From positions 39,680,001 through 39,744,000 of the forward strand of contig NC_090344.1 in NCBI RefSeq assembly GCF_035084215.1: 64,000 nucleotides of DNA, written 5' to 3'. The DNA is from Heptranchias perlo. Taxonomy: Eukaryota. This document shows, one piece after another, positions 13,053-61,108 of this stretch (position 1 is its first letter; the number at the start of each line of letters is the position of its first letter). Under the pieces are notes generated by a model. It saw only the letters and a list, made by a program, of their open reading frames with translations, did not search any database and was not told where the DNA came from. A program made the position numbers and the translations under genes.

Positions 13053-14327
13053 CCAATGAACTAGATGGGCTTTTGTGATGATCCAGCAGCTTTCATGCCA
13101 GCCCACAAATTACTGGATTTATTGAATTTATTTCCACAACTTGCCATAGTGGGATTTGAACTCATGACCTGTAGGTAGCTCATCCAGCACTATAACCATT
13201 AGGCTACCATACCCTGTTAATACATTATGGAATGGACTTTGTAATACAGTACAATTTACGAGATGTTATATCAATTCAGCGCATCATCTTTATTTCCTTT
13301 TTGCATACTTTACACCAACATTATTGCACTCAATGAACACACCACATAAAAATGAGCCAGCATAGTTGTACATATTTTTACAGTGGTTGAACATGGCTCA
13401 GGATCAGGGTAGCCATGGTGGGTGGATTATTGTGCTGTCAGTGTATTCTCCAATAGTACCATGTTAAGAAAATTTAGTATTGCACCAAAAAATAACCCAG
13501 AATACCATATTTCTCTTTGAAGAATGAACTGCCCATTACCATACCTCGACTGTTAATTATTATATGCTTGACTGTTTTCCTGTTTGGATTTCCAATGATT
13601 CTCTTCATATTTTTTAAAAAAGAGGTGAGACAAGAAAAACAAACATACATGATAAGAAACCACAGACTATGTTTTCCTATGAAAATTATTTTTTAATGTG
13701 CATTCTTTATAAGACAAAATCTCAGTGAATTCAAAGTGACTCAGTGTTGAGGTTTTACTGACATCCGTTGGCTCCTGGGAGTTTGATGTTGTCCTAACCC
13801 CTCCAACAATTTCCTCTCTTGAAACACTGCACCGTTTGTCTGTTATTTCATGTCTACTTATTTCATTCTGCTGCAATTATCATAAAAGTGATTGGCTACA
13901 GGCTTTTATTATTCACATACAAACACAATGTACAACGCCATGAATCACCTTCAAACACATCATTACATCAGTTCTCACTGAGGCTGTGAGAATTTCTCTG
14001 ATTGCTGTGTCACGACATGGTGCATGCGTTTTTAAAAGTTTCTTCCCTTCAATGCTCTTGGAGAAATTGTAAACATGTCCCGATGTCCCCTTAGATATCA
14101 CGAGAAATAACGAACAGAGGAAATTTCACAAATACATTCACAGTATCGTCACAGAGACCAGAGGAACTCTTATCCCGAGGTCACTGAGAAACATAACGTG
14201 CACTTTTTTGGCTTTACTCTCTTCCCAAAGGATGTGTAACACAGAGCAGTGTACAACTGTGGACTGTACTCTTATGAATATGGTTAATTTTTTTGGAAAA
14301 AATTATTCTCCTTCTTTCAAGATTGTA

Positions 14328-14443
14328 TGATGTGGAGATGCCGGTGATGGACTGGCATTGACAAATGTAAAGAATCTTACAACACCAGGTTATAGTCCAA
14401 CAATTTTATTTGAAAATCACAAGCTTTTGATTTTCAAATAAAA
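14328..14443. mobile_element. Short Penelope-like terminal-repeat insertion with partial palindrome
   Basis: Closely similar to 49204-49300 and 42555-42612. Flanked by the 12-bp direct repeat TTCAAGATTGTA (14316-14327, 14444-14455). Confidence 0.8.
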
Positions 14444-14611
14444 TTCAAGATTGTAACCAGCCAAGTTCCTCACTTGATCTCCTCTTTCCTTCGCTAGTTG
14501 AAGAGTTTTCAGTGGTTTCCAACACTTGGTCCGAAAAAGAACCGACAAAGTAATCAAAGTGAATCATAATGCATCATTGGTTCATATGTTCCCTGTAACA
14601 TTGGCAAATGC

Positions 14612-23203: not shown

Positions 23204-23404
23204 TCAAATTCTTTGTTTCAACTTCAGGGAGCTGTCCGGACACAGCAGTTGCTTTAGAAACCCATTGTCTGGGTCGATGCCCTGATGGTCCTTCACTGTC
23301 CTTATGGCTTCCACTAATGTCATGTTGCTGTTGGATCATCAGGTGGCCCAGAACCATGGTCGCTGACCTGCTTATTCCAACTGCGCAGTGCACCAGGAGT
23401 TTTG
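23204..23404 (-). pseudogene. DUSP26: DUSP26-like last coding exon with PTP loop, frameshifted
   Basis: Acceptor ccttccgttcacag|CA AAA CTC CTG GTG CAC TGC GCA GTT GGA ATA AGC AGG TCA gives KLLVHCAVGISRS (HCX5R). One extra base lies near 23324-23335. The shifted frame gives NMTLVEAIRTVKDHQGIDPDNGFLKQLLCPDSSLKLKQRI*, with TGA at 23206-23204. Confidence 0.92.
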
Positions 23405-23521
23405 CTGTGAACGGAAGGTGTTAACTGGTGTTAGTCTGTACAAAACATTGTAATGACACAGCTTGCAGAGTGTTACAATGCACTGAGGGGATGAGTTGGG
23501 CCACCTGGACCTCATGATGTA

Positions 23522-28585: not shown

Positions 28586-29127
28586 TATTAAGGACATCAT
28601 TCTGCATTAGTTGGATGAAGTATCCATGTTGTTTGTCAGTCGTGACACCTGCTGCTGTACATGGCAACGTGTCAGATTATTTAAGAGGGACACAAATATT
28701 TATAACCTGTGAGTCATTACGATGAAGATCTTGGATTGCGACAGTGCTCCCGCTGATTATAGCATCTCAACTCCTTGATCAATAGATCAGTGAGAGTGAA
28801 AATAGAGCGATTTATTGTCATCTGAATCTTGAAACGTGATTGATTTTCTGCTGCAATCGCTTTCTCCTGTCAGCGGCATCTCCATCACTGCTTTCCTACT
28901 GCAGGTCCTGTGCAGGTATATTTAACTTAAAAAGGAAGGAAATTCTGCAGGGAAGTATTTTCTGTTCCAAGTATTCTGCCGATTTCTTTTGGTTTATAGA
29001 CTGCATCATCTTTGTCGCAGTTTCCACCATGAGAAAAGCACACACTTCGGTGTCCAGTATCCGCCCATTGAAATATTCCAGTCCAATATTTTATTATCTA
29101 ACCTGATTGCTTGTCTGATGATAACAT

Positions 29128-32100
29128 GGATTTATGGGCCTCCTGCTGGGGCCATGGGTTTATGGGCTGGGGCCCTGGGTTTATAGACCTCCTGCTGGGG
29201 CCCTGGGTTTATGGACCTCCTATTGGGGCCCTGGGTTTATGGGCCTCCTGTTGGGGCCATGGGTTTATGGGCTGGGGCCCTGGGTTTATAGACCTCCTGC
29301 TGGGGCCCTGGGTTTATGGGCCTCCTACTGGGGCCCTGGGTTTATGGGCCTCCTATTGGGGCCCTGGGTTTATGGGCCTCCTGTTGGGGCCCTGGGTTTA
29401 TAGGCCTCCTGCTTGGGTCCTGGGTTTATGGGCCTCCTACTGGGGCCCTGGGTTTATGGGCCTCCTACTGGGGCCCTGGGTTTATGGGCCTCCTACCCGG
29501 GGCCCTAGATTTATGGGCCTCCTGCTGGTGCTGTGGGTTTATGGGTCTCCTGCTGATGCTGTGGGTTTATGAGTCTCCTGCTGGTGCTGTGGGTTTATGA
29601 GTCCCTTGCTGGTGCTGTGGGTTTATGGGTCTTCTGCTGATGCTGTGGGTTTATGGACTGTCTGCTGATGCTGTGGGTTTATGGACTGTCTGCTGGTGCT
29701 GTGGGTTTATGGGCCTCCTGCTGGTGCTGTGGGTTTATGGGTCTCCTGCTGGTGCTGTGGGTTTATGGGTCTCCTGCTGATGCTGTGGGTTTATGGGCCT
29801 TCTGGTGCTGTGGGTTTATAGACTGCCTGCTGGTGCTGTGGGTTTATGGGCCTCCTGCTGGTGCTGTGGGTTTATAGACTGCCTGCTGGTGCTGTGGGTT
29901 TATGGGCCTCCTGCTGGTGCTGTGGGTTTATGGGCCTTCTGCTGGTGCTTTAGGTTTATGGACTGTCTGCTGGTGCTGTGGGTTTATGGGCCTCCTGCTG
30001 GTGCTGTGGGTTTATGGACTGCCTGCTGGTGCTGTGGAGTTATGGGTCTCCTGCTGGTGCTATGGGTTTATGGGCCTTCTGCTGGTGCTGTGGGTTTATG
30101 GGCCTCCTGCTGGTGCTGTGGGTCTATGGGCCTTCTGCTGGTGCTGTGGGTTTATGGGTCTCCTGCTGGTGCTGTGGGTTTATGGGCCTTCTGCTGGTGC
30201 TGTGGGTTTATGGGTCTCCTGCTAGTGCTGTGGGTTTATGGGTCTCCTGCTGGTGCTATGGGTTCATGGGTCTCCTGCTGGTGCTGTGGGTTTATGGACT
30301 GCCTGCTGGTGCTGTGGCTTTATGGGTCTCCTGCTGGTGCTGTGGGTTTATGGACCTTCTGCTGGTGCTATGGGTTTATGGACTGTCTGCTGGTGCTGTG
30401 GGTTTATGGGTCTCCTGCTGGTGCTGTGGGTTTATGGGTCTTCTGCTGGTGCTGTGGGTTTATGGACTGCCTGCCGGTGCTGTGGGATTATGGACTGCCT
30501 GCTGGTACTGTGGGTTTATGGGTCTCCTGCTGGTGCTGTGGGTTTATGGGTCTCCTGCTGGTGCTGTGGGTTTATGGGCCTCCTGCTGGTGCTGTGGGTT
30601 TATGGGCCTCCACCTGGTGCTATGGGTTTATGGGTCTCCTGCTGTTGCTGTGGATTTATGGGTCTCCTGCTGGTGCTGTGGGTTTATGGGTCTCCTGCTG
30701 CGCTGTGGGTTTATGGACTGCCTGCTGTGCTGTGGGTTTATGGACTGCCTGCTGGTGCTGTGGGATTATGGACTGCCTGCTGGTACTGTGGGTTTATGGG
30801 TCTCCTGCTGGTGCTGTGGGTTTATGGGTCTCCTGCTGGTGCTGTGGGTTTATGGGCCTCCTGCTGGTGCTGTGGGTTTATGGGCCTCCTGCTGGTGCTG
30901 TGGGTTTATGGGCCTCCTGCTGGTGCTGTGGGTTTATGGGCCTCCTCCTGGTGCTGTGGGTTTATGGACTGCCTGCTGGTGCTGTGGGTTTATGGGTCTC
31001 CTGCTGATGCTGTGGGTTTATGGGTCTCCTGCTGGTGCTGTGGGTTAATGGGCCTCCTCCTGGTGCTGTGGGTTTATGGGTCTCCTGCTGGTGCTGTGGG
31101 TTTATGGGCCTCCTGCTGGTGCTGTGGGTTTATAGACTGCCTGCTGGTGCTGTGGGTTTATGGGTCTCCTGCTGATGCTGTGGGTTTACGGGTCTCCTGC
31201 TGGTGCTGTGGGTTTATGGACTGCCTGCTGGTGCTGTGGGATTGTGGACTGCCTGCTGGTACTGTGGGTTTATGGGTCTCCTGCTGGTGCTGTGGGTTTA
31301 TGGGCCTTCTGCTGGTGCTGTGGGTTTATGGGCCTCCTGCTGGTGCTGTGGGTTTATGGGCCTCCTCCTGGTGCTGTGGGTTTATGGGTCTCCTGCTGGT
31401 GCTGTGGATTTATGGGTCTCCTGCTGGTGCTGTGGGTTTATGGGTCTCCTGCTGGTGCTGTGGCTTTATGGGCCTCCTGCTGGTGCTGTGGCTTTATGGG
31501 CCTTCTGCTGGTGCTGTGGGTTTATGGGTCTCCTGCTGGTGCTGTGGCTTTATGGGTCTCCTGCTGGTGCTGTGGGTTTATGGGTCTCCTGCTGGTGCTG
31601 TGGGTTTATGGGTCTCCTGCTGGTGCTGTGGATTTATGGGTCTCCTGCTGGTGCTGTGGGTTTATGGGCCTCCTGCTGGTGCTGTGGGTTTATGGACTGC
31701 CTGCTGGTACTGTGGGTTTATGGGTCTCCTGCTGGTGCTGTGGATTTATGGGTCTCCTGCTGGTGCTGTGGGTTTATGGGTCTCCTGCTGCGCTGTGGGT
31801 TTATGGACTGCCTGCTGTGCTGTGGGTTTATGGACTGCCTACTGGTGCTGTGGGTTTATGGGTCTCCTGCTGGTGCTGTGGGTTTATGGGTCTCCTGCTG
31901 GTGCTGTGGGTTAATGGGCCTTCTGCTGGTGCTGTGGCTTTATGGGCCTTCTGCTGGTGCTGTGGGTTTATGGGCCTCCTGCTGGTGCTGTGGGTTTATG
32001 GGCCTCCTGCTGGTGCTGTGGCTTTATGGGCCTTCTGCTGGTGCTGTGGGTTTATGGGTCTCCTGCTGGTGCTGTGGCTTTATGGGTCTCCTGCTGGTGC

Positions 32101-34580
32101 TGTGGGTTTATGGGTCTCCTGCTGGTGCTGTGGGTTTATGGGTCTCCTGCTGGTGCTGTGGATTTATGGGTCTCCTGCTGGTGCTGTGGGTTTATGGGCC
32201 TCCTGCTGGTGCTGTGGGTTTATGGACTGCCTGCTGGTACTGTGGGTTTATGGGTCTCCTGCTGTTGCTGTGGATTTATGGGTCTCCTGCTGGTGCTGTG
32301 GGTTTATGGGTCTCCTGCTGCGCTGTGGGTTTATGGACTGCCTGCTGTGCTGTGGGTTTATGGACTGCCTACTGGTGCTGTGGGATTATGGACTGCCTGC
32401 TGGTACTGTGGGTTTATGGGTCTCCTGCTGGTGCTGTGGGTTTATGGGTCTCCTGGTGCTGTGGGTTTATGGGCCTCCTGCTGGTGCTGTGGGTTTATGG
32501 GCCTCCTGCTGGTGCTGTGGGTTTATGGGCCTCCTGCTGGTGCTGTGGGTTTATGGGCCTCCTCCTGGTGCTGTGGGTTTATGGACTGCCTGCTGGTGCT
32601 GTGGGTTTATGGGTCTCCTGCTGATGCTGTGGGTTTATGGGTCTCCTGCTGGTGCTGTGGGTTAATGGGCCTCCTCCTGGTGCTGTGGGTTTATGGGTCT
32701 CCTGCTGGTGCTGTGGGTTTATGGGCCTCCTGCTGGTGCTGTGGGTTTATAGACTGCCTGCTGGTGCTGTGGGTTTATGGGTCTCCTGCTGATGCTGTGG
32801 GTTTACGGGTCTCCTGCTGGTGCTGTGGGTTTATGGACTGCCTGCTGGTGCTGTGGGATTGTGGACTGCCTGCTGGTACTGTGGGTTTATGGGTCTCCTG
32901 CTGGTGCTGTGGGTTTATGGGCCTTCTGCTGGTGCTGTGGGTTTATGGGCCTCCTGCTGGTGCTGTGGGTTTATGGGCCTCCTCCTGGTGCTGTGGGTTT
33001 ATGGGTCTCCTGCTGGTGCTGTGGATTTATGGGTCTCCTGCTGGTGCTGTGGGTTTATGGGTCTCCTGCTGGTGCTGTGGCTTTATGGGCCTCCTGCTGG
33101 TGCTGTGGCTTTATGGGCCTTCTGCTGGTGCTGTGGGTTTATGGGTCTCCTGCTGGTGCTGTGGCTTTATGGGTCTCCTGCTGGTGCTGTGGGTTTATGG
33201 GTCTCCTGCTGGTGCTGTGGGTTTATGGGTCTCCTGCTGGTGCTGTGGATTTATGGGTCTCCTGCTGGTGCTGTGGGTTTATGGGCCTCCTGCTGGTGCT
33301 GTGGGTTTATGGACTGCCTGCTGGTACTGTGGGTTTATGGGTCTCCTGCTGGTGCTGTGGATTTATGGGTCTCCTGCTGGTGCTGTGGGTTTATGGGTCT
33401 CCTGCTGCGCTGTGGGTTTATGGACTGCCTGCTGTGCTGTGGGTTTATGGACTGCCTACTGGTGCTGTGGGTTTATGGGTCTCCTGCTGGTGCTGTGGGT
33501 TTATGGGTCTCCTGCTGGTGCTGTGGGTTTATGGGTCTCCTGCTGGTGCTGTGGGTTAATGGGCCTTCTGCTGGTGCTGTGGCTTTATGGGCCTTCTGCT
33601 GGTGCTGTGGGTTTATGGGCCTCCTGCTGGTGCTGTGGGTTTATGGGCCTCCTGCTGGTGCTGTGGCTTTATGGGCCTCCTGCTGGTGCTGTGGCTTTAT
33701 GGGCCTTCTGCTGGTGCTGTGGGTTTATGGGTCTCCTGCTGGTGCTGTGGCTTTATGGGTCTCCTGCTGGTGCTGTGGGTTTATGGGTCTCCTGCTGGTG
33801 CTGTGGGTTTATGGGTCTCCTGCTGGTGCTGTGGATTTATGGGTCTCCTGCTGGTGCTGTGGGTTTATGGGCCTCCTGCTGGTGCTGTGGGTTTATGGAC
33901 TGCCTGCTGGTACTGTGGGTTTATGGGTCTCCTGCTGGTGCTGTGGATTTATGGGTCTCCTGCTGGTGCTGTGGGTTTATGGGTCTCCTGCTGCGCTGTG
34001 GGTTTATGGACTGCCTGCTGTGCTGTGGGTTTATGGACTGCCTACTGGTGCTGTGGGTTTATGGGTCTCCTGCTGGTGCTGTGGGTTTATGGGTCTCCTG
34101 CTGGTGCTGTGGGTTAATGGGCCTTCTGCTGGTGCTGTGGGTTTATGGGCCTTCTGCTGGTGCTGTTGGTTTATGGGCCTCCTGCTGGTGCTGTGGGTTT
34201 ATGGGCCTCCTGCTGGTGCTGTGGCTTTATGGGCCTTCTGCTGGTGCTGTGGGTTTATGGGTCTCCTGCTGGTGCTGTGGCTTTATGGGTCTCCTGCTGG
34301 TGCTGTGGGTTTATGGGTCTCCTGCTGGTGCTGTGGGTTTATGGGTCTCCTGCTGGTGCTGTGGATTTATGGGTCTCCTGCTGGTTCTGTGGGTTTATGG
34401 GCCTTCTGCTGGTGCTGTGGGTTTATGGGCCTCCTGCTGGTGCTGTGGGTTTATGGGCCTCCTGCTGGTGCTGTGGATTTATGGGTCTCCTGCTGGTGCT
34501 GTGGGTTTATGGGCCTTCTGCTTGTGCTGTGGGTTTATGGGCCTCCTGCTGGTGCTTTGGTTTATGGGCCTCCTGCTGGT
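29128..34580. repeat. 28-bp minisatellite/satellite array (about 5.4 kb, roughly 190-195 units)
   Basis: Consensus CTGGTGCTGTGGGTTTATGGG(T/C)CTCCTG. Three units (84 bp) give the 28-aa period MGLLLVLWVYGSPAGAVGLWVSCWCCGF seen in all three + frames. Confidence 0.98.
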
Positions 34581-40610: not shown

Positions 40611-42272
40611 TCATAGAATCGTTACAGCACAGAAGGAGGCCATTCGGCCCATCGAGCCCGTGCCAGCTTTCTGCAAGAGCAATCCAGCTTGTCCCACTCC
40701 CCCGCCCTTTTCCCTTAGCCCTGCAAATTTTTTGCCTTCAAGTGCTTATACACTTCCCTTTTGAAAGCCGTGATTGAATCTGCCTCCGCCAGTCTTTCAG
40801 GCAGTGCATTCCAGACCATAACCACTCGCTGCGTGAAAAAGTTTTTCCTCATGTCACCTTTGGTTCTTTTGCCAGTCACCTTAAATCTGTGTTGTCTGGT
40901 TCTTGACCCTTCCGCCAATGGGAACAGTTTCTCTCTATCTACTCTGTCTATACCCCACATGATTTTGAGCACATCCATCAAATCTCCTCTCAACCTTCTC
41001 TGCCCTAAAGAGAACAACCCCAGATTCTCCAGTCTATCCATGTAACTGAAGTCCCTCATCCCTGGAACCATTCTAGTAAATCTTTTCTGCACCCTCTTTA
41101 ATTGGACACAATACTCCAGTTGTGGCTGAACCAGTGTTTTAGAAAGGTTCATCATAACTTCCTTGCTTTTGTACTCTTTGCCTCTATTTATAAAGCCCAG
41201 GATCCTGTATGCTTTTTTAACCACTTTCTCAACCTGCCCTGCCACCTTCAAAGACCTGTGCACATATACCCCCAGATCTCTCTTTTCCTGCACCCTCTTT
41301 AGAATTGTACCCTTCAGTTTATATTGCCTCTCCTCGTTCTTCCTACTAAAAATTATCACCTCGCACGTCTCTGCGTTAAATTTTATCTGCCATGTGTCTG
41401 CCCATTCCACCAGCCTGTTTATGTCCTCTTGAAGTCTATCACTATCCTCCTCACTGTTTACTAGACTTCCAAGTTTTGTGTCATCTGCAAATTTTGAAAT
41501 TGTGCCCTGTCCACCCAAGTCCAAGTCATTAATATATACCAAGAAAAGCAGTGGTCCTGGTACCGATCCCTTGGGAACACCACTGTATACCTTCTTCCAG
41601 TCCGATAAACAACCCTTCACCGCTACTCTCTATTTCCTGTCACTTTGCCAATTTCGTATCCATGCTGCCACTACCCCTTTTATTCCATTGGCTACAACTT
41701 TGCTGACAAGCCTATTATGTAGCACTTTATCAAACGCCTTTTGGAAGTCCATATTCACAACATCAACCGCATTGCCCTCATCAACCCTCTCTGTTACCTC
41801 ATCAAAAAACTAGATCAAGTTAGTTGAACATGATTTGCCTTTAATAAATCTGTGCTGGCTTTCCTTAATTATTCCACACTTGTCCAAGTGACTGTTAATT
41901 TTGTCCCGGATTAACGATTCTAAAAGCTTCCCCACCACCGAGGTTAAACTGACTGGCCTATAGTTGCTGGACTTTTTTGAACAAGGGTGTAACATTTGTA
42001 ATTCTCCAGTCCTCTGGCACCACCCCCATATCTAAGGAGGATTGGAAGATTATGGCCAGCACCTCTGCAATTTCCATCCTTACTTCCCTCAGCAACCAAG
42101 GATGCATCCCATCTGGACCTGGTGACTTGTCTACTTGAAGTACAGCCAGCCTTTCTAGTACCTCCTCTTCATCAATTTTTAGCCCATCCAGTATCTCAAC
42201 TACCTCCTCTTTTACTGTGACTTTGGCAGTATCTTTTTCCTTGGTAAAGACAGATGCAAAGTACTCATTTGG
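40611..42272 (-). mobile_element. 5'-truncated CR1 LINE (RT domain)
   Basis: ORFs 41958..42401 (NEYFASVFTKE, KSPGPDGMHP), 41810..41995 (NYRPVSLTSVVGK) and 40715..41620 (GVPKGSVPGPLLFLVYINDL, KFADDTKL, WNALP). Confidence 0.95.
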
Positions 42273-42554
42273 TACCCCAGCCGTACCAGTACCTTTTCCT
42301 TTAACTTCCTCCCCAAGTTCACAAAGACCATCTTCCCCCTCCAATATCCACCGCCGCACCACCCCCCCCACCCAGTTTATAGTTGCACTGTACCCCCTCA
42401 CACAGGGGCACTGTCTCCCTCTCCACCCTGGATCACAGAGGTTACATAAAATTAATAGAAATTACAACAACGAAATGGGCCATTATTTTGGGAAGTGCAC
42501 CTTCCCAGAGGGCGGGAAATTTGATTCCAGTGTCTTCTGGCTATTCCACATACG

Positions 42555-42961
42555 TAAACAATCTTACAACACCAGGTTATAGTCCAACAATTTTATTTGA
42601 AAATCACAAGCTTTCGGAGGCTTCCTCCTTCGTCAGGTGAATGTCAGGAAATCCTTGAACGTTTCGCATTTATAGTCAGAGAACAATACCTGGTGATTAC
42701 AGATAATCTTTCCAACTGCCCGTTGTCAAGGCAATCAAAGTGTTCAGACAGAGAGGTGTTACCTACAGGACCACCGAATATACAAACGGCCAGAACACAA
42801 AACAGAGAGAGAGAGGGAGAAACATCCAAAAGGAAGAGAAAGACAGACCTGTTGAATTAAAGACAGATAACTTTTATTCGCTGGTGGGGTTACGTGTAGC
42901 GTGACATGAACCCAAGATCCCGGTTGAGGCCGTCCTCATGGGTGCGGAACTTGGCTATCAA
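42555..42961 (-). mobile_element. Penelope-like element 3' end (ORF C-terminus plus terminal repeat with hammerhead core)
   Basis: The minus strand begins TTG ATA GCC AAG TTC CGC ACC CAT GAG GAC GGC CTC AAC CGG GAT CTT GGG TTC (LIAKFRTHEDGLNRDLGFMSRYT*), like the end of a Penelope GIY-YIG domain. 13-bp TSD TATTCCACATACG at 42542-42554 and 42962-42974. Confidence 0.85.
42600..42640 (-). ncRNA. Minimal hammerhead ribozyme motif (Penelope-associated)
   Basis: Minus strand CACCTGACGA-A-GGAGG-AAG-CCTCC-GAAA-GCTT: a CUGANGA box, a 5-bp stem II and a GAAA box. Confidence 0.65.
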
Positions 42962-43335
42962 TATTCCACATACGATCACTGGTATTCACAGATGGGGAGA
43001 AAGAGGCTGGGAGAAAGAGAGAGGGGGTTGGGGGACTGGAGATCTAAGAGAGGGGAATGTGTCTCTGGGAGTCTAAAAGGGCAATGCGAATCTGAGCGGG
43101 GAACAGGAGCCTGAGAGAGGTGAGCAGGACTCTGGGAGCCTATGAATGATGACCAGCACTGGAAATTCCAGATTAAAAGGAAAGAAAGACTAAGGAACGT
43201 CGATGAGTGAAAATACCATCCACGAAATGACCTTCCTACTTTCAACCCCCAAAACCGTGATCTTAATTTCCTATACACTATAAAGTGTAATTCTGTTGGC
43301 TGGTTGTGGAATTCATGACTTGAGCCAGTCTTTTC

Positions 43336-44907: not shown

Positions 44908-45506
44908 TGTGTTTCATCCTATGAATGGTTGTTCTCCACTGCAATAAAAACAGCCAAATACAGGCCCACCGCAGTAGGCAGGCCAAGTGGTAGACAATAA
45001 AGGGACACTGAATGCTGGTTAAACTAACAGCGTCTCAAAAGGAATCTCAGAAGTTGCTGTTTGATCTTGCAACTCGTGGCCGTACTGCATCACAAATTGA
45101 ACAATATTCAGCTGATACAAAAAGAAGAAATTGCTGGAAATACACAGCAGATCCTCCAATATCAGAAAAGGCAGGTTAATGTTCTGGGTCAGAACCATTG
45201 AGTCAGGACTGTGCCAATGTGAATTGGAGGGAGAGGAACGAAGGGTGCCAACTTGAACTGGGGGCAGAGGGAGAAGAGTATCTGCTTCAATGGTGGATTG
45301 GAGGTGGAGTGCCTCTGTGAAGTGGGATGGGGAGAGTATCTCTTCATTAAGACCACAGTCAGAGTACTGTGTCAGAACAACACTCGAACCTCAACCTCTT
45401 TCAGGTGCTGATTAACCTGAAGGTACAATTTCCACAGGGGCTGTCCTGCACGAATGGCCATTTACGCTGTTTCTCCAGGGTTTCTGCCGTTCTTCTGCCG
45501 AAGTTA

Positions 45507-46073
45507 CCTGGTTAGACCGTACCTGGAGTACTGTGAGCAGTTCTGGGCACCGCACCTTCGGAAGGACATATTGGCCTTGGAGGGAGTGCAGCGTAGGTTG
45601 ACTAGAATGATACCCGTACTTCAAGGATTAAGTTACGAGGAGAGATTACACAAATTGGGGTTGTATTCTCTGGAGTTTAGAAGGTTGAGGGGTGATCTGA
45701 TCGAAGTTTATAAGATATTAAGGGGAATGGATAGGGTGGATAGAGAGAAAATATTTCCGCTGGTTGGGGATTCTAGGAGTAGAGGGCACAGTCTAAAAAT
45801 TAGAGCCAGACCTTTCAGGAGTGAGATTAGAAAACATTTCTACACACAAAGGGTGGTAGAAGTTTGGAACTCTCTTCCGCAAACGGCAATTGATACTAGC
45901 TCAATTGCTAAATTTAAATGTGAGATAGATAGCTTTTTGGCAACCAAAGGTATTAAGGGATATGGGCCAAAGGCAGGTATATGGAGCTAGATCACAGATC
46001 AGCCATGATCTTATCAAATGGCGGAGCAGGCACGAGGGGCTGAATGGCCTACTCCTGTTCCTATGTTCCTATG
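45507..46073 (+). mobile_element. CR1 3' fragment with an uninterrupted ORF2 C-terminus
   Basis: LVRPYLEYCEQFWAPHLRKD...WNSLPQ...GIKGYGPKAGIWS*. Tail cctatgttcctatgt. Confidence 0.93.
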
Positions 46074-46946
46074 TTACGGCGGGAGATTGGGAGAACCCCC
46101 ATGGAAATTCCAGGTGCTGGTGTATGTCTCCTGACTTGATGGTGTTTCTTCTTAGCTCTTGTTAGTTTCGAAATTAAGTACCTTGGAATTTGTAGGGAGG
46201 CTTTGTTTTAAGTCCGTTTCCCCCACCTGGTGACGGACAGGCCTCGCCATTTAGTTAATGCATAATGATCTTAATTGAATTCATTCCGTAAGTTGTGTTC
46301 ATGAATATCTAGTTTCCTCTCAAAATTGCCCTCATTGATGACTCAGCTTCTGACCCTTTTCTCTTTCTCCCGGTCCTCCAGATCTCTGTCCTCTCCCCCA
46401 TTCTGCCCCTTCTTTATGCCAATGACCTCCTCTACTCATCATCCAACCCTATCTATTAAAAGTGGGGAAAATAGTGAGCAGCGCCTACCCGAACTTCTGA
46501 TAGATGCTGCTCCTTGCTCCTTGCAACACAAACTTGTAAAATTACCCCTCTAATCTGCCACTCTGACTCATACTTTCCCAGGATTTCAAAACTGCGGAAC
46601 TCATTAGCCCTCTAGTCTTTCCCTCCTCCGACAATCTTCTGCCTCGTGCCACCTCATCTCTACTTATTGATCACGCCTTCCATGGTTTTTGGAAATGGGT
46701 TGTTAAAATTCAACTAAAAAGACAAGACATTCCTACAGCTTGTTGATGAAGGTCTGTTTTTCATTACATTGGGAGAATAACAGACAAACAGGCAGGGACA
46801 GCTCAGCAGGAGACCCTTCAGGCTCTTACTAAATATAAACTCTGGTGGCATCCAGCACTAATCTCTTTTCCACTCTCTTCCCAAGACTGGTGTCAAGTTG
46901 AAAATGAACTGCACAAACCCACATTAAATACCCAATGGGTACTTAG

Positions 46947-47132
46947 TGATCTCCCAGGTACAGCCGTACAGGCTAAACTTCGTCTGCGTGATTGCAGGCT
47001 GTTTTACCAGTGAAAAGTAAACTTTCCAACTCGTGCACACTGAGTACAAGCGACGTTTCTTTGAATTCCATGTGACTTCTGGATTTGGACTACCTACCGC
47101 CATATGCCATTTCTTCAGCTGATCACATGAAC
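46947..47132 (-). pseudogene. DUSP26: DUSP26-like first coding exon (disabled)
   Basis: Acceptor ttttgacag| precedes 47132 and ATG is at 47110-47108. The frame reads MAYGGR*SKSRSHMEFKETSLVLSVHELESLLFTGKTACNHADEV*PVRLYLGD. TAG occurs at 47092-47090 and at 46975-46973 (the W of HADEVWP). The exon ends CA|CTAAGT where GTAAGT is expected. Confidence 0.88.
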
Positions 47133-48039: not shown

Positions 48040-48440
48040 TGTCTGTGCTGGCTCTTTGAAAGAGCTATCCAATTAGTCCCACTCCCCTTTCTCTTTCCTG
48101 ATAGCCCTGCAAATTTTTCCACTTCAAGTATCTATCCAAATCCCTTTTGCAAGTATTTATCCAAATCCCTTTTGAAAGTATTTATTGAATCTGCTTCCAC
48201 CGCTCTTTCAGAGGCAGTGCATTCCAGATCATAACAATTCACTGCATAAAAATTATTTTCCTCAAGTCGCCTCTGGCTCTTTTGCCAATCACCTGAAATC
48301 TGTGTCCTCTGGTTACCAGCCCTTCTGCCACTGGAAACAGTATCTCCTTATTTACTCTATCAAAACCTTTCATGATTTTGAACACCTCTATCAAATCTCC
48401 CCTTAACCTTCTCTGCTCTAAGGAGAACAACCCCAAATTC
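48040..48440 (-). mobile_element. CR1 3' fragment
   Basis: LGLFSLEQRRLRGDLIEVFKIMKGFDRVNKEILFPVAEGLVTRGHRF. Confidence 0.88.
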
Positions 48441-49203
48441 TTACCATGTATAAGATAAAGGCATGCAGGCTTCAGACTGTTTATAGGCCTTGCTCTCTTG
48501 CATAAGTGTTGATATTCATTAAAGAATTGGAATATACATGTGATTAACAGCATGCTGACAATTAGATAGACTGCTTAGCTGCAATTGTTACAGATACCAA
48601 CTCAAAGCAAGCAGTTACAGTACCTCTAATTATTTTGCTCAGCTCTAGCTAGGGGCTTCAGTGTGTTACAAGGAAGCTTGCTTTTAGCTGACTTGCCAAA
48701 AAATTACTTGAGTACTATTTTAAGCATTTAAATGGCTGGAGCCAGGCTTATTTATGCTCTACATAGCCTACAGATTTTACCTCATTAACTTCTGCGGGAA
48801 GGAATTAGCTTTGTGGAAGAAAGCATTTGAGTCCCACACGTTATAAGATGATTTGTAAAATGAACGCTTTGTAATCAATTCTATGTCGATGGTCAGTTTT
48901 TTAAGAGACCCTGAAAAGGGTTTGAAAAGGAATGACTATTCGATTGGAAATGCTCCCGGAGATAAGTCAGACATAATTGTATAATCTGAAATATTCTGTA
49001 TTTCAGCTAAAAAAAAGACTACCCCTCCCCCCCCCACTTCCCCCCTCTCCCCCCACTTCCCCCCTCCCCCCCTACTTCCCCCCTCCCTCAGCTTTCTCTC
49101 CTTTGCCTCCCTCTTTTTCTTACAGCAGAGCCTCAGCCAGCAGTTCAGTTCCACGGATGTCCACAAGACTCCAAAGCATCAACCCATTCATTTATTAACC
49201 TAG

Positions 49204-49431
49204 ATGTGGAGATGCCGGTGATGGACTGGGGTTGACAATTGTAAACAATTTTACAACACCAAGTTATAGTCCAGCAATTTTATTTTAAATTCACAAGCTT
49301 TCGGAGGCTTCCCCCTTCGTCAGGTGAACGATCATTTCACATCGTTCACCTGACGAAGGGGGAAGCCTCCGAAAGCTTGTGAATTTAAAATAAAATTGCT
49401 GGACTATAACTTGGTGTTGTAAAATTGTTTA
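49204..49431. mobile_element. Palindromic Penelope-like terminal-repeat insertion
   Basis: Perfect inverted repeat 49240-49332 / 49341-49433 (93-bp arms, 8-nt spacer). 15-bp TSD CATTTATTAACCTAG at 49189-49203 and 49432-49446. Same family as 42555-42640. Confidence 0.9.
49347..49382 (+). ncRNA. Minimal hammerhead ribozyme motif (mirror copy on - strand at about 49291-49326)
   Basis: CTGACGA (49350-49356), A, GGGGG-AAG-CCTCC stem II with one G-U pair, GAAA (49371-49374), GCTT. Confidence 0.62.
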
Positions 49432-49490
49432 CATTTATTAACCTAGGTAGTGATTGATGGCTGGCAATTCCATATGGGTTCGAATGCTGT

Positions 49491-49910
49491 AGAATAACGG
49501 ATACCTGTAAGTGAGTTACAGGCTGGAATCTAATTGAGGGGTTTAGATGGTTTATATATAGAATAACGGATACCCGTAAGTGAGTTACAGGCTGGAATCC
49601 AATTGGGGGGTTCAGATGATTTATATATAGAATAATGGATAACTGGGCGTGAGTTACAGGCTGGAATCCAATTGAGGGGTTTAGATGGTTTATATATAGA
49701 ATAATGGATAACTGGGAGTGAGTTCCAGGCTGGAAGCCAATTGAGGGGTTTGGATGGTTTATATATACAATAATGGATACTTGGGAGTGAGTTACAGGCT
49801 GGAATCTAACCAAGGGGTTCGGATGGTTTATATATAGAATAATGGATATCTGGGAGTGAGTTACAGGCTGGAATCTAATCGAGGGGTTCAGATGGTTTAT
49901 ATATAGAATA
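49491..49910. repeat. 69-bp minisatellite, about 6 copies
   Basis: Unit approximately AGAATAACGGATACCTGGGAGTGAGTTACAGGCTGGAATCTAATTGAGGGGTTTAGATGGTTTATATAT. It produces the 23-aa repeat in ORF 49385..49957. Confidence 0.93.
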
Positions 49911-50311
49911 ATGTGGACAAAGTGTATGAATGGGACCCGGTGATACATGACAGGCACTGCATTGTCACCAAATCACTGATAATAGCAGTGAATATGAGAA
50001 TTCACAGTTTTGTAAAATATGAAATTGCATAAACTTACCGCATAAATTTACATGCAGTGATATTTTTTAATATGTGACAGGAAAAGCCAATTTTGAAAGG
50101 TGCAAGGGGCAGTCTGATACCGTCACTGTCATTCCTTCCATAATACCTTTTGCAGGTTGAGTTGAATATTAATCAGAGAGCATTTGATGGCACGATCTGG
50201 AGGCTGAGAGCATTATATGAGTGAATTTTAATATTGATGGAACAATTACAGGATGTTAAACTGAAGGAATTTGAATATATTAGAGGATTAAGTACTGTAC
50301 ATTTTAAAGAA

Positions 50312-58233: not shown

Positions 58234-58395
58234 TTCATAGAATCATAGAAGGAGCACAGAAGGAGGCCATTCGGCTCATCGTGCCTGTGCTGGCTCTTTG
58301 AAAGAGCTGTCCAGTATAGTCCCACACCCCAGCTTTTTCCCCATAACCCTGCAAATTAGTCCTCTTCAAGTACATGTCCAATTGCCTTTTGAAAC
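58234..58395 (-). mobile_element. CR1 3' end
   Basis: catagaatcataga tail on +. FKRQLDMYLKRTNLQGYGEKAGVWD, near-identical to 12895-13050. Confidence 0.88.
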
Positions 58396-61108
58396 ATGGA
58401 TGTCCAGTCCCTCGACACCTCCAACCCCCACCACAATGGCCTGTGGATCCTCCGCTTCTTCCTTGAACGGAGGCCCAACCAGTCCCCATCCACCACCACC
58501 CTCCTCCGCCTGGCTAAACTTGTTCTTACATTGAACAACTTCTCCTTTGACTCCACTCACTTCCTCCAAATAAAAGGTGTCGCTATGGGAACCCATATGG
58601 GTCCCAGCTATGCCTGCCTTTTTGTGGGATACGCGGAACATTCCTTGTTCCATTCGTACTCAGGTCCCCTCCCTCATCTCTTTTTCCATCATATTGATGA
58701 CTATATTGGTGCCGTATCCTGCTCTCACCCCGAACTGGAAAATGTCATCAACTTTGCTTCCAATTTCCACCCTTCCCTTGCCTTCAGGTGGTCCATCTCC
58801 GATTCCTCCCTTCCCTTCCTCGAGTTCTCTATCTCCATTTCTGGGGATAGGCTGTGAACCAATATCTATTATAAGCCTACCGAACTCCCACAGCTACCTT
58901 GATTACACTTCCTCCCACCCCGCTTCCTCAAAGGACTCTATTCCCTTCTCCCAGTTTCTCCGTCTCCATCGCATCTGTTCTGACGTTACCATCTTCTGCT
59001 CCAATGCTTCCGATGTCTTCCTTTTTCCTCAACCAATGATTCCCCTCCACTGTAGTTGACAGCGCTCTTGACTGTGTCAGTCCTATTTCCCGCATTTCTG
59101 CCCTAGCCCCTTCCCGTCCCTCCCAGGATGATAGGGTCCCTCTTGTCCTCACCTTCCACCCCACCAGCCTCCAGATTCAACATATCATCTCCACCATTTC
59201 CGCCACCTCCGGCGCGAACCCACCACCAAACACATCTTCCCCTCCTCTCCCCTTTCAGCATTCCGAAGGGACCGTTCCCTCCCTGACACCCTAGTCCACT
59301 TTTCCATCAACCCCAATACCCACTCTCCTCCCCACGGCACCTTCCCGTGCGAGTGCAGAAGATGCAACACCTGCCCCTTCACTGCATCCCCTCCCACCGT
59401 CCAGGGCCCCAAACACTCCTTCTAGGTGAAACAGCGATTTACTTGTACTTCTTTCAATTTAGTATACTGTATCCGCTGCTCACAATGCGGTCTCCTCTAC
59501 ACTGGGGAGACCAAATGCAGTCTGGGTGATCGCTTTGCTGAACACTTCCGCTCTGTCCGCAAGTGTGACCCTGACCTGCCGGTCGCTTGCCATTTTAGAT
59601 CTCCTTCCCATTCCTGCTCTGACCTCTCTGTCCTCAGCCTCTTACACTGTTCCAATGAAGCTCAACATAAGCTCGAGGAACAGCACCTCATCTTTCATTT
59701 AGGCACTTTACAACCTTCTGGACTCAACATTGATTTCATTAACTTCAGATCATAACCACTGCTCCCATTTTTTCGGTCTGCTAGTGCTGGTAATGGTTCT
59801 GCTGCTGCCATTTACAGCTACTCCTGATCAATCTTTTGTTTCTTAACCTGCCCCATTACCACCTTCCTTGCCTTGCACCATCATCCCTTTTGTCATTTAA
59901 TCACCCCTGCCCTCTACCTTATCACAGATCTTCCCGTTTGATCTTTCCTCCCCACCCCTCCCTCCCCCCCCCCCTTTCCCTGGCTCTGTAATTGCTCAAA
60001 AACTTTAACTCTTTTAACATCTTCCAGTTCTGACAAAAGGTCTTCGACCTGAAACATTGGGGGTGATTTTAGGAGGCAAATGCGGACGCGTTTGGGGTAG
60101 GGGGGCTCCGAAAATCGGGCAAATCCCTTTCGGGTTCAGAAGTCGGCTTCAACCCGCCGGCTTCTGAGTTTCCCAGGGAACCACCTGTGTGCGCGCGGGT
60201 GACCCGCTAATGGAAGTCCCGCCGGCAATTAAAGCCAGCGGGATGATTGTAATAGAGCCAAATGTACCTCACTGAGGTATTTAAGGCACATTACCTGTGA
60301 CAGATGAAGGGATTAGAAAGATTTTTAACTTACCTGGGCTGCTTGCCCGCCGGATCACGGAAAAAGAAACTAAATAAATTAAATAAAAAAACATGCAATG
60401 AAGTGAAAACACTAAATGCACCTACCTTTGAAACCTGCTCCGATGTCCGATGTCTCCCACTCCGATGTCCCCCTCTTCACCCTCCTGGACACAATGTCCC
60501 CTGATCTCACCCTCCCGATCTTCCCCTGTTCTCCCCCTCTTCACTCTCCCGATGTCCCCCCCAATGTCCCCCCGATCTTACCCTCCCGAACTTCCTCTCT
60601 CCCCCCCCCGATCTTCCCTTCTCCCCCCCAGATCTTCCCCTACCCCCCCAGATCTTCCCCTCCCCCCCGATCTTCCCCCTCCCCCCCCCCCCGGTCTTCC
60701 AGTCCAGCGCCGAATCTTCCATTCTCCCCCCCCCACCCGTCTTCAGTCCAGCGCCGGATGATGTCTGGTTCTCTCTCTTTCTCGCCCCCCCACCCCCCCA
60801 CCCCCCGGCGTTGCAGCTCCTGACGGCAGCCAGCCTGTCAATCAGGTCAGCTGCCGGGCGCGAAGAGGACGTTAACTATTATAAATCAAAGTGCGATCAC
60901 ATCGGAAACGGTAAGTTTGATTCATGCGGGTTTGCCACTCGCCCAATCGCCCCCCCCGCGCCCACTGCTGCCATCCCACCTCCCTGCGAATATCGGCGCC
61001 ATTAACTCTGTTTCTTTCTCCACAGATGCTGCCTGACTTGCTGAGCTTCTCCAGCATTTTCTGTTTTTATTTCAGATTTCCAGCATCTGCAGGACTTTGC
61101 TTTTGCCT
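58396..61108 (+). mobile_element. Decayed Penelope-like element (RT, GIY-YIG endonuclease and 3' terminal region), interrupted by a MITE at 60059-61000
   Basis: RT motifs LVLTLNNFSFDSTHFLQIKGVAMGTHMGPSYACLFVG, HIDD (YIDD-like), LPFLE and SIPFSQFLRLHRICS. Endonuclease FTCTSFNLVYCIRCSQCGLLYTGETKCSLGDRFAEH...LGTLQPSGLNIDF. Stops and frameshifts are present. Confidence 0.92.
60059..61000. mobile_element. GC-rich non-autonomous DNA transposon (Harbinger-like), 942 bp
   Basis: Splits gacctgaaac-att-aactctg of the Penelope tail. ATT is duplicated at 60056-60058 and 61001-61003. Termini are imperfectly inverted (GGGGGTGATTTT vs reverse complement GGCGCCGATATT). Internal cccgatcttccc repeats. Confidence 0.65.

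Follow-up and report, generated by a model that had tools for sequence, protein, structure and literature searches.

What kind of sequence is the perfect palindrome at positions 49189-49446 of the window (the whole 64,000-nt stretch of Heptranchias perlo DNA analysed here), which carries a hammerhead ribozyme core on each strand, and how did it come to lie there? The reading favored here, at a probability of about 0.68, is that it is a stub of an abundant, young, endonuclease-bearing Penelope-like element (PLE), made by priming from two strands on the 5′ leader of the element's RNA. This reading starts from what was observed: family membership, the ORF of a parent element, a tail on one side only, the TSD and the positions of the ends.

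Anatomy of the insertion

The palindrome claimed in a preliminary description of this DNA was borne out, as each of the arms (49240-49332 and 49341-49433) is, over 93 nt, the exact reverse complement of the other, with no further extension of the complementarity possible, and the two are separated by an 8-nt loop, CATTTCAC. The same description took the repeat on either side to be a 15-bp TSD. Identical 15-mers do flank the palindrome (49189-49203 and 49432-49446, the only two occurrences in the window), but their initial CA and final G are common to the ends of the element, so that the duplication itself is probably the 12-bp core (49191-49202 and 49434-49445). In the family, 12 bp is also the mode (36 of 67 TSDs), with a range of 9-14 bp and an A+T content of 73%.

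The two halves of the insertion are not equivalent. The left arm continues into a further 37 nt of the element, the “tail” (49203-49239), which the right arm does not have. The right arm, in turn, extends into the loop: since the 101-nt right arm including the loop was found as an exact match in 6 fetched loci, the loop is read as the element's own upstream sequence, i.e., the 5′ extension of this arm. The 130-nt left arm with its tail was identical in 7 fetched loci. Counted from the ATG of the parent element (see below), the left arm (minus strand) ends at -1, whereas the right arm (plus strand) ends at about -38 and starts one base before the A at -138, the equivalent of which in the window is 49334; of the two arms here, the longer one is that without the tail. 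The parts are as follows:

49191..49202, plus strand: left TSD, 12-bp core (15 bp, 49189-49203, when 2 + 1 shared nt are counted)
49203..49239, minus strand: PLE “tail”, 37 nt, left arm only, ending at -1 relative to the parent ATG
49240..49332, minus strand: left arm, 3′ part of the pLTR, beginning 7 nt below the putative start of the RNA and ending at -38
49289..49329, minus strand: minimal type I hammerhead, C3 at 49323, predicted cut 49295/49294, mirroring the plus-strand copy
49333..49340, plus strand: loop, continuing the right arm on its 5′ side; the family's 5′ ends pile up at A49334
49341..49433, plus strand: right arm, same part of the pLTR without the tail, ending at about -38
49344..49384, plus strand: minimal type I hammerhead; stem I 49344-49349/49379-49384, core 49350-49356, extra A 49357, stem II 49358-49370, GAAA 49371-49374, predicted cut 49378/49379; a palindromic AGCU replaces helix III
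49434..49445, plus strand: right TSD, 12-bp core

Perfect palindromes can also arise as artefacts of assembly or through fold-back in a library, and the whole insert is spanned by none of the short-read contigs listed. Such an origin is scarcely credible here, however, given a TSD and a one-sided tail that are typical of the family, a loop derived from the element, and thousands of similar structures that each have an individual TSD. Contigs from three runs of one sample (X1, X3 and X4) also leave the unique left flank and continue for 20-21 nt of the element without any difference, an overlap below the 31-letter bar set for a bridge; a further run (X5, RNA by guess) matches the repeat only and not the unique flank, and the latter is covered by none of four runs from other organisms. 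The insertion in the window is real, and it is an ordinary, dead, ORF-less stub of a known kind.

Family, parent element and age

Copies of the family were counted as exact pattern matches in the animal's own 3.25-Gb genome, where reversed controls gave 0. A 35-mer over the hammerhead core had 10,125 matches and a 27-mer downstream of the core had 47,535, with 52 for a one-base variant of the latter. Head-to-head pairs of cores with no more than 30 nt between them, the genome-wide palindrome count proposed in the preliminary description, numbered 2,712, and with this figure the special standing implied for the locus was lost, as it is one among thousands of like stubs. The call of a Penelope-like insertion that is young and ORF-less and includes a partial copy in inverted orientation, on the other hand, was upheld by family membership and by the near-identical copies; the rare 27-mer variant, together with the unchanged 130-nt and 101-nt arms in other loci, indicates that the family is very young.

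At the parent locus (L046), a 902-aa open frame has its ATG directly after the tail, and the order of the parts is a truncated 606-aa copy, a pLTR, the full ORF and a second pLTR, i.e., a partial tandem; the arms in the window are 97% identical to the pLTR. The protein matches RVT_1 (E 2.8e-10) and, over its last 170 aa, GIY-YIG (E 8.1e-05), and contains ADKG, the DKG motif upstream of the RT core that is named in PMC8557442 and that was found in 8 of the 8 homologues checked. Its linker before GIY-YIG reads CHGNLCKTC (Cx4CxxC). A CX2-5CxxC linker at this place is described in PMC8557442 as a Neptune trait shared with Nematis, and the linker thus points to a Neptune/Nematis type, with Neptune as a tentative clade name. 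The closest named relatives of the ORF are Heptranchias perlo proteins (93-94%) and Scyliorhinus torazame (84%). Membership in the EN+ Penelope-like elements is seen in the RT with a C-terminal GIY-YIG, the pLTR tandem, the inverted copy, the tail and the TSD, all of which are present.

The layout of an inverted pLTR, a one-sided tail of 30-40 bp and a TSD is already published; it was reported in EN+ PLEs for Adineta Pen2a_Av (PMC3846280) and is drawn as a scheme in PMC8557442 (Fig. 2 legend), and the layout of the D. virilis Penelope is given in PMC2377424 (Fig. 1 legend). The shark family shares with EN+ PLEs the head-to-head pLTR, the tail at one end (here 37 nt), the short TSD, the 5′ truncation and the partial tandems in the parent. 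It differs from the Adineta PLEs in a TSD of ~12 bp as against the 8-10 bp described there, and from the described EN+ PLE insertions in that both halves are stubs of 101-130 nt without an ORF; compared with the published EN+ PLEs, the thousands of copies here permit statistics on the ends.

Several side observations were made on the family and its relatives. Near 14330 and 42554, the window contains two more copies. The former (14316-14455) belongs to the same family and is smaller, with a tailed arm cut inside the hammerhead, an inverted arm of ~20 nt and a 12-bp TSD, and the latter (42542-42974, minus strand) is a single, tail-less copy of a sister subfamily, ~405 bp long, that runs to the C-terminal end of the ORF and whose hammerhead core is intact, with a TSD of 13 bp. 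Decayed ORF pieces at 58393-59755, with RT- and GIY-YIG-like motifs recognized by eye, are likely to represent a second, unrelated Penelope-like family. Both ORF copies of the parent locus (L046:788-3496 and L046:3857-5677, minus strand) have W for the second Cys of the endonuclease CxxxC stretch, a position that is C in the relatives P0002 and P0004. Part of one Heptranchias protein (P0015, epn2 isoform X2) is 96% identical to the PLE ORF over 29% of the ORF, perhaps through an annotation fusion or exonisation.

The hammerhead ribozyme

The hammerhead core announced for each strand is present as CTGACGA, stem II and GAAA followed by GCTT; the plus-strand core starts at 49350 and its minus-strand counterpart at 49323. 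The features matched are the core CUGANGA, the extra nucleotide, GAAA, UH, stems I and II, and the palindromic 15.2-16.2. Two traits set the window copy apart from the minimal type I hammerheads described for metazoan PLEs (Cervera and De la Pena 2014, PMC4209133), namely a 5-bp stem II that includes one G-U pair and the spacing of the two cores, which are only 27 nt apart; hammerhead pairs on opposite strands are already in print. The motif corresponds to the minimal, dimer-type hammerhead of PLEs, whose cleavage in vitro was reported to be weak (PMC4209133).

An Rfam check for a hammerhead gave 7 matches at E<=10 with no hammerhead family among them. The best of these, mir-4716, scored 52.3 bits against a gathering score of 76, and it was rejected along with the others as a generic hairpin match below threshold. 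The ribozyme call is therefore based on motif and conservation. Across 21 chosen variants, the core was invariant except at N7, the stem cells were paired in 94.8% (27-48% in slid controls), and two-sided changes were found at 2 of the 11 stem pairs, these variants being related sequences that were picked by the descriptor and are hence weak as covariation. The conserved stems and core lend modest support to the identification as a hammerhead.

The long hairpin or cruciform that had also been proposed is possible on energy (-182 kcal/mol for the RNA and -115 for the DNA arms). The proposal that either strand would give a working hammerhead RNA fared worse in the folding model: a read-through RNA of the locus, whichever the strand, would have the sense arm behind the antisense arm, and stems I and II are predicted to pair in it with a probability of 0.0, as compared with 0.33-0.87 in a single arm. 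The hairpin of the window copy is predicted to mask the hammerhead in such an RNA, and with the cores on opposite strands there would be no dimerisation in cis. A different minimal-hammerhead-like motif with unrelated stems, which probably belongs to another PLE family, was seen at two other loci (L055:2147-2187 and L075:2179-2219, minus strand).

The conserved core and its supported stems, as well as the occurrence of palindromes in thousands, could be taken to mean that the palindrome is itself a non-autonomous element, a retrozyme spreading as a unit via self-cleaving or circular RNA, and a pLTR origin has been reported for retrozymes (10.64898/2026.07.22.740005). The non-LTR retrozymes of that report resemble the insertion in that they are ORF-less and pLTR-related and carry a type I hammerhead; they are, however, built of units in direct tandem, each with its own hammerhead, whereas an inverted pair with a site-unique centre is found here, with one core per strand, no tandem direct hammerheads and no tandem array over the insert. 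The predicted masking of the stems also speaks against this explanation, and so do the arm ends, which lay at the predicted cut (-92/-93) in 3 of 30 loci, where they follow microhomology, and did not pile up there. The centres themselves largely refute it, with 58 distinct ones in 65 insertions and that of the window palindrome in none of 316 loci. Because the centres vary by site, the palindrome must be rebuilt at each insertion and is not spread as a unit, which makes a retrozyme very improbable.

Layout across insertions

Two samples of insertions were scored for their layout. The first consisted of insertions with the rare 27-mer variant, chosen regardless of the 5′ end, for which 49 of 50 distinct insertions were fetched; 31 of the 49 were head-to-head pairs, a lower bound, as some of the long copies extend beyond the locus, and in 30 of the 31 pairs the tail was on one arm only. 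The second sample was taken from the first 50 palindromes listed, of which 49 were scored and one was classed as single, and one tailed arm was found in all 48 pairs. The samples have one insertion in common, and most of the sampled loci come from one contig (C1). In the pooled set, exactly one arm was tailed in 93 of 96 pairs. The 3′ ends clustered at two sites, about -37 and -3..+14.

The two arms of a pair nearly always carry the same variants. N7 was alike between the arms in 93 of 96 pairs, whereas 68% would be expected if they were independent, and a five-site haplotype was alike in 76 of 96 (24% expected); in 2 of the 31 pairs of the first sample, even the rare variant (52 vs 47,535 genome-wide) was on both arms. 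These shared variants favour the view that each event drew on one RNA or one source locus. The same is predicted by fold-back, in which a single cDNA (or an antisense RNA) would turn back and serve as its own template, with the tail being set on resolution of the intermediate; self-priming of an antisense RNA has been proposed for the inverted arm (PMC3846280), and the overlaps seen at the junction in 18 of 30 loci, 1-6 nt long, would fit such a process as well. A folded-back copy must, however, nest in the first strand, and yet, in a comparison of the 5′ reach in 71 short pairs, the tail-less arm was longer in 33, the tailed arm was longer in 18, and the two were equal within 1 nt in 20. Either arm may thus be the longer one, so that no single order of fold-back fits. 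The second arm, moreover, ends at a fixed site, and four of the 96 pairs (L172, L029, L233 and L100) have arms of different variants, with a common-allele swap at N7 or in stem II, or at both in the case of L029, which suggests two templates, with point mutation or gene conversion also possible. Fold-back is accordingly held to be unlikely, and priming from both strands is the reading carried forward.

5′ ends and the putative RNA start

In full copies, a TATAAAT, which we take to be a TATA box, stands at -167, and 29 nt below it, at -138, lies an A that is presumably the initiator. It is here, and not at the ribozyme cut, that the 5′ ends of the family pile up. Arms of one variant that reach the A at -138 number 3,149 genome-wide, and those that reach 10 nt further number 1,680. 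When 94 of 100 listed places of arms reaching this A were scored for the stop position, 34 stopped within 0-2 nt, 7 within 3-9 and 4 within 10-29, none stopped within 30-44, and 49 ran on. Arm ends with the partner fixed were counted in three windows of ~30 nt and numbered 122 (about -65..-95), 202 (-86..-116) and 4,446 (-116..-146), it being understood that the anchors differ, that the first two windows overlap and that a palindrome counts twice if both arms qualify. An exact 56-mer count (1,071) is confounded by upstream variants and was set aside as a truncation rate. An extra G was present in 9 of 17 arms, in which a cap-derived G is indistinguishable from sequence of the partner arm.

A cliff of one base accompanied by shorter ends is likely to reflect run-off at the 5′ end of the RNA plus trimming. 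The position -138 would then be the RNA start, as judged from the pile-up of ends together with a TATAAAT at the expected distance. Against this start stands the one mapped Penelope promoter, that of Drosophila, which is internal and TATA-less (PMC2377424), although a putative TATA plus initiator is described for an Adineta pLTR (PMC3846280).

Ribozyme-cut RNA was considered as the template, since a narrow search had given 15 of 20 junctions at -87..-95, and was opposed by a wider search. The 202 arms across -86..-116, compared with the 4,446 above, do not support a cut-RNA template, although a minor class is possible. The lack of a pile-up at the ribozyme cut agrees with the account in PMC11167929, in which uncut RNA is the main substrate and the hammerhead is dispensable.

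Proposed mechanism

In the proposed scheme, the element protein would cut both target strands ~12 bp apart, and each of the free ends would prime reverse transcription of the 5′ leader of the element RNA, presumably from the tail end (about -1) in the case of one strand and from about -38 in that of its partner. Both cDNAs would run toward the 5′ end of the RNA (about -138) and would be joined head to head, with trimming of a few bases, and fill-in of the staggered ends would yield the TSD. The hammerhead would be carried along, as it lies within the copied leader. Since the arms are usually of the same variant, the model must assume that one RNA is used twice or that the RNAs come from one source locus.

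In vitro work on a lizard PLE (PMC11167929) described the cutting and extension of both strands and two internal start sites that bound the tail, and the putative priming sites at -1 and -38 match these two. The start site is described there as alike for both strands, and with no strand difference in the start site, that account leaves the one-tail rule unexplained. A more specific version of the scheme, for which the odds appear slightly better than even, is symmetric two-ended TPRT, in which a PLE dimer would make nicks ~12 bp apart and use one fixed RNA start site per strand, with the uncut leader being copied and the cDNAs, sometimes from two RNAs, being joined. If this were true, the inverted pLTR and the one-sided tail would be explained without antisense self-priming, and the promoter of the element would be mappable from DNA alone.

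The lizard element, PAc (Poseidon of Anolis carolinensis; Frangieh et al. 2024, PMC11167929), is like the shark family in that two adjacent 3′ end sites bound the tail, the targets are A+T-rich and the ends of the insertions are not marked by the hammerhead. It differs in its described organization, as the hammerhead of PAc contains the beginning of the ORF, which in turn contains the start sites, whereas the hammerhead and both end sites precede the ATG here, and in that the shark protein has the Neptune/Nematis-type Cx4CxxC linker, unlike that Poseidon element. Among the titles listed in literature searches, none describes this shark family or a run-off model.

Neighbouring sequence

The assignment of a DUSP26-like coding exon about 2 kb from the insertion holds, at ~2.1 kb and on the minus strand. 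The gene was traced at 46940-47110 and 23207-23408 of the window (minus strand), and a regex search for a middle-exon motif found none. The near exon has an in-frame TAG after NHADEV and CT where a GT donor is expected, and the far (catalytic) exon has a +1 frameshift between DUSP26 residues 110 and 113, so that the gene looks broken in this assembly.

A perfect stem of 93 bp would be a substrate for Dicer or ADAR if it were transcribed, and from its position 2.1 kb upstream of the exon, the palindrome might be regarded as a co-opted regulatory hairpin, either a source of siRNA or miRNA or a cis element, that acts on the DUSP26-like gene. With the gene looking broken, a regulatory link is without support; the arms are, in addition, identical to other genomic copies, which makes the insertion very recent, and the mir-4716 match lies below its gathering score. 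A regulatory role is accordingly regarded as very unlikely.

Other repeats were noted in the window. A 69-bp tandem repeat of 6.1 copies (49490-49913) begins 44 bp to the right of the insertion, and a strongly strand-skewed 28-bp minisatellite of ~196 copies occupies 29127-34580. Fragments of RT-encoding LINE-like elements, presumably CR1-like, lie at 40715-42461, 45421-45990 and 48040-48450.

Significance

The locus itself is of minor importance, being a stub that looks neutral and has thousands of counterparts. The family, by contrast, bears on the origin of the inverted pLTR and the one-sided tail in PLEs, for which antisense self-priming has been proposed (PMC3846280) and for which the steps after first-strand synthesis are left unvalidated in the account of PMC11167929. 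With a very young family, tens of thousands of near-identical arms and a parent with an open frame, the model of two-strand priming with run-off is testable by counting and by the in vitro assay already published. In shark genomes, the thousands of perfect palindromes of 90-140 bp may also supply double-stranded RNA or fragile sites.
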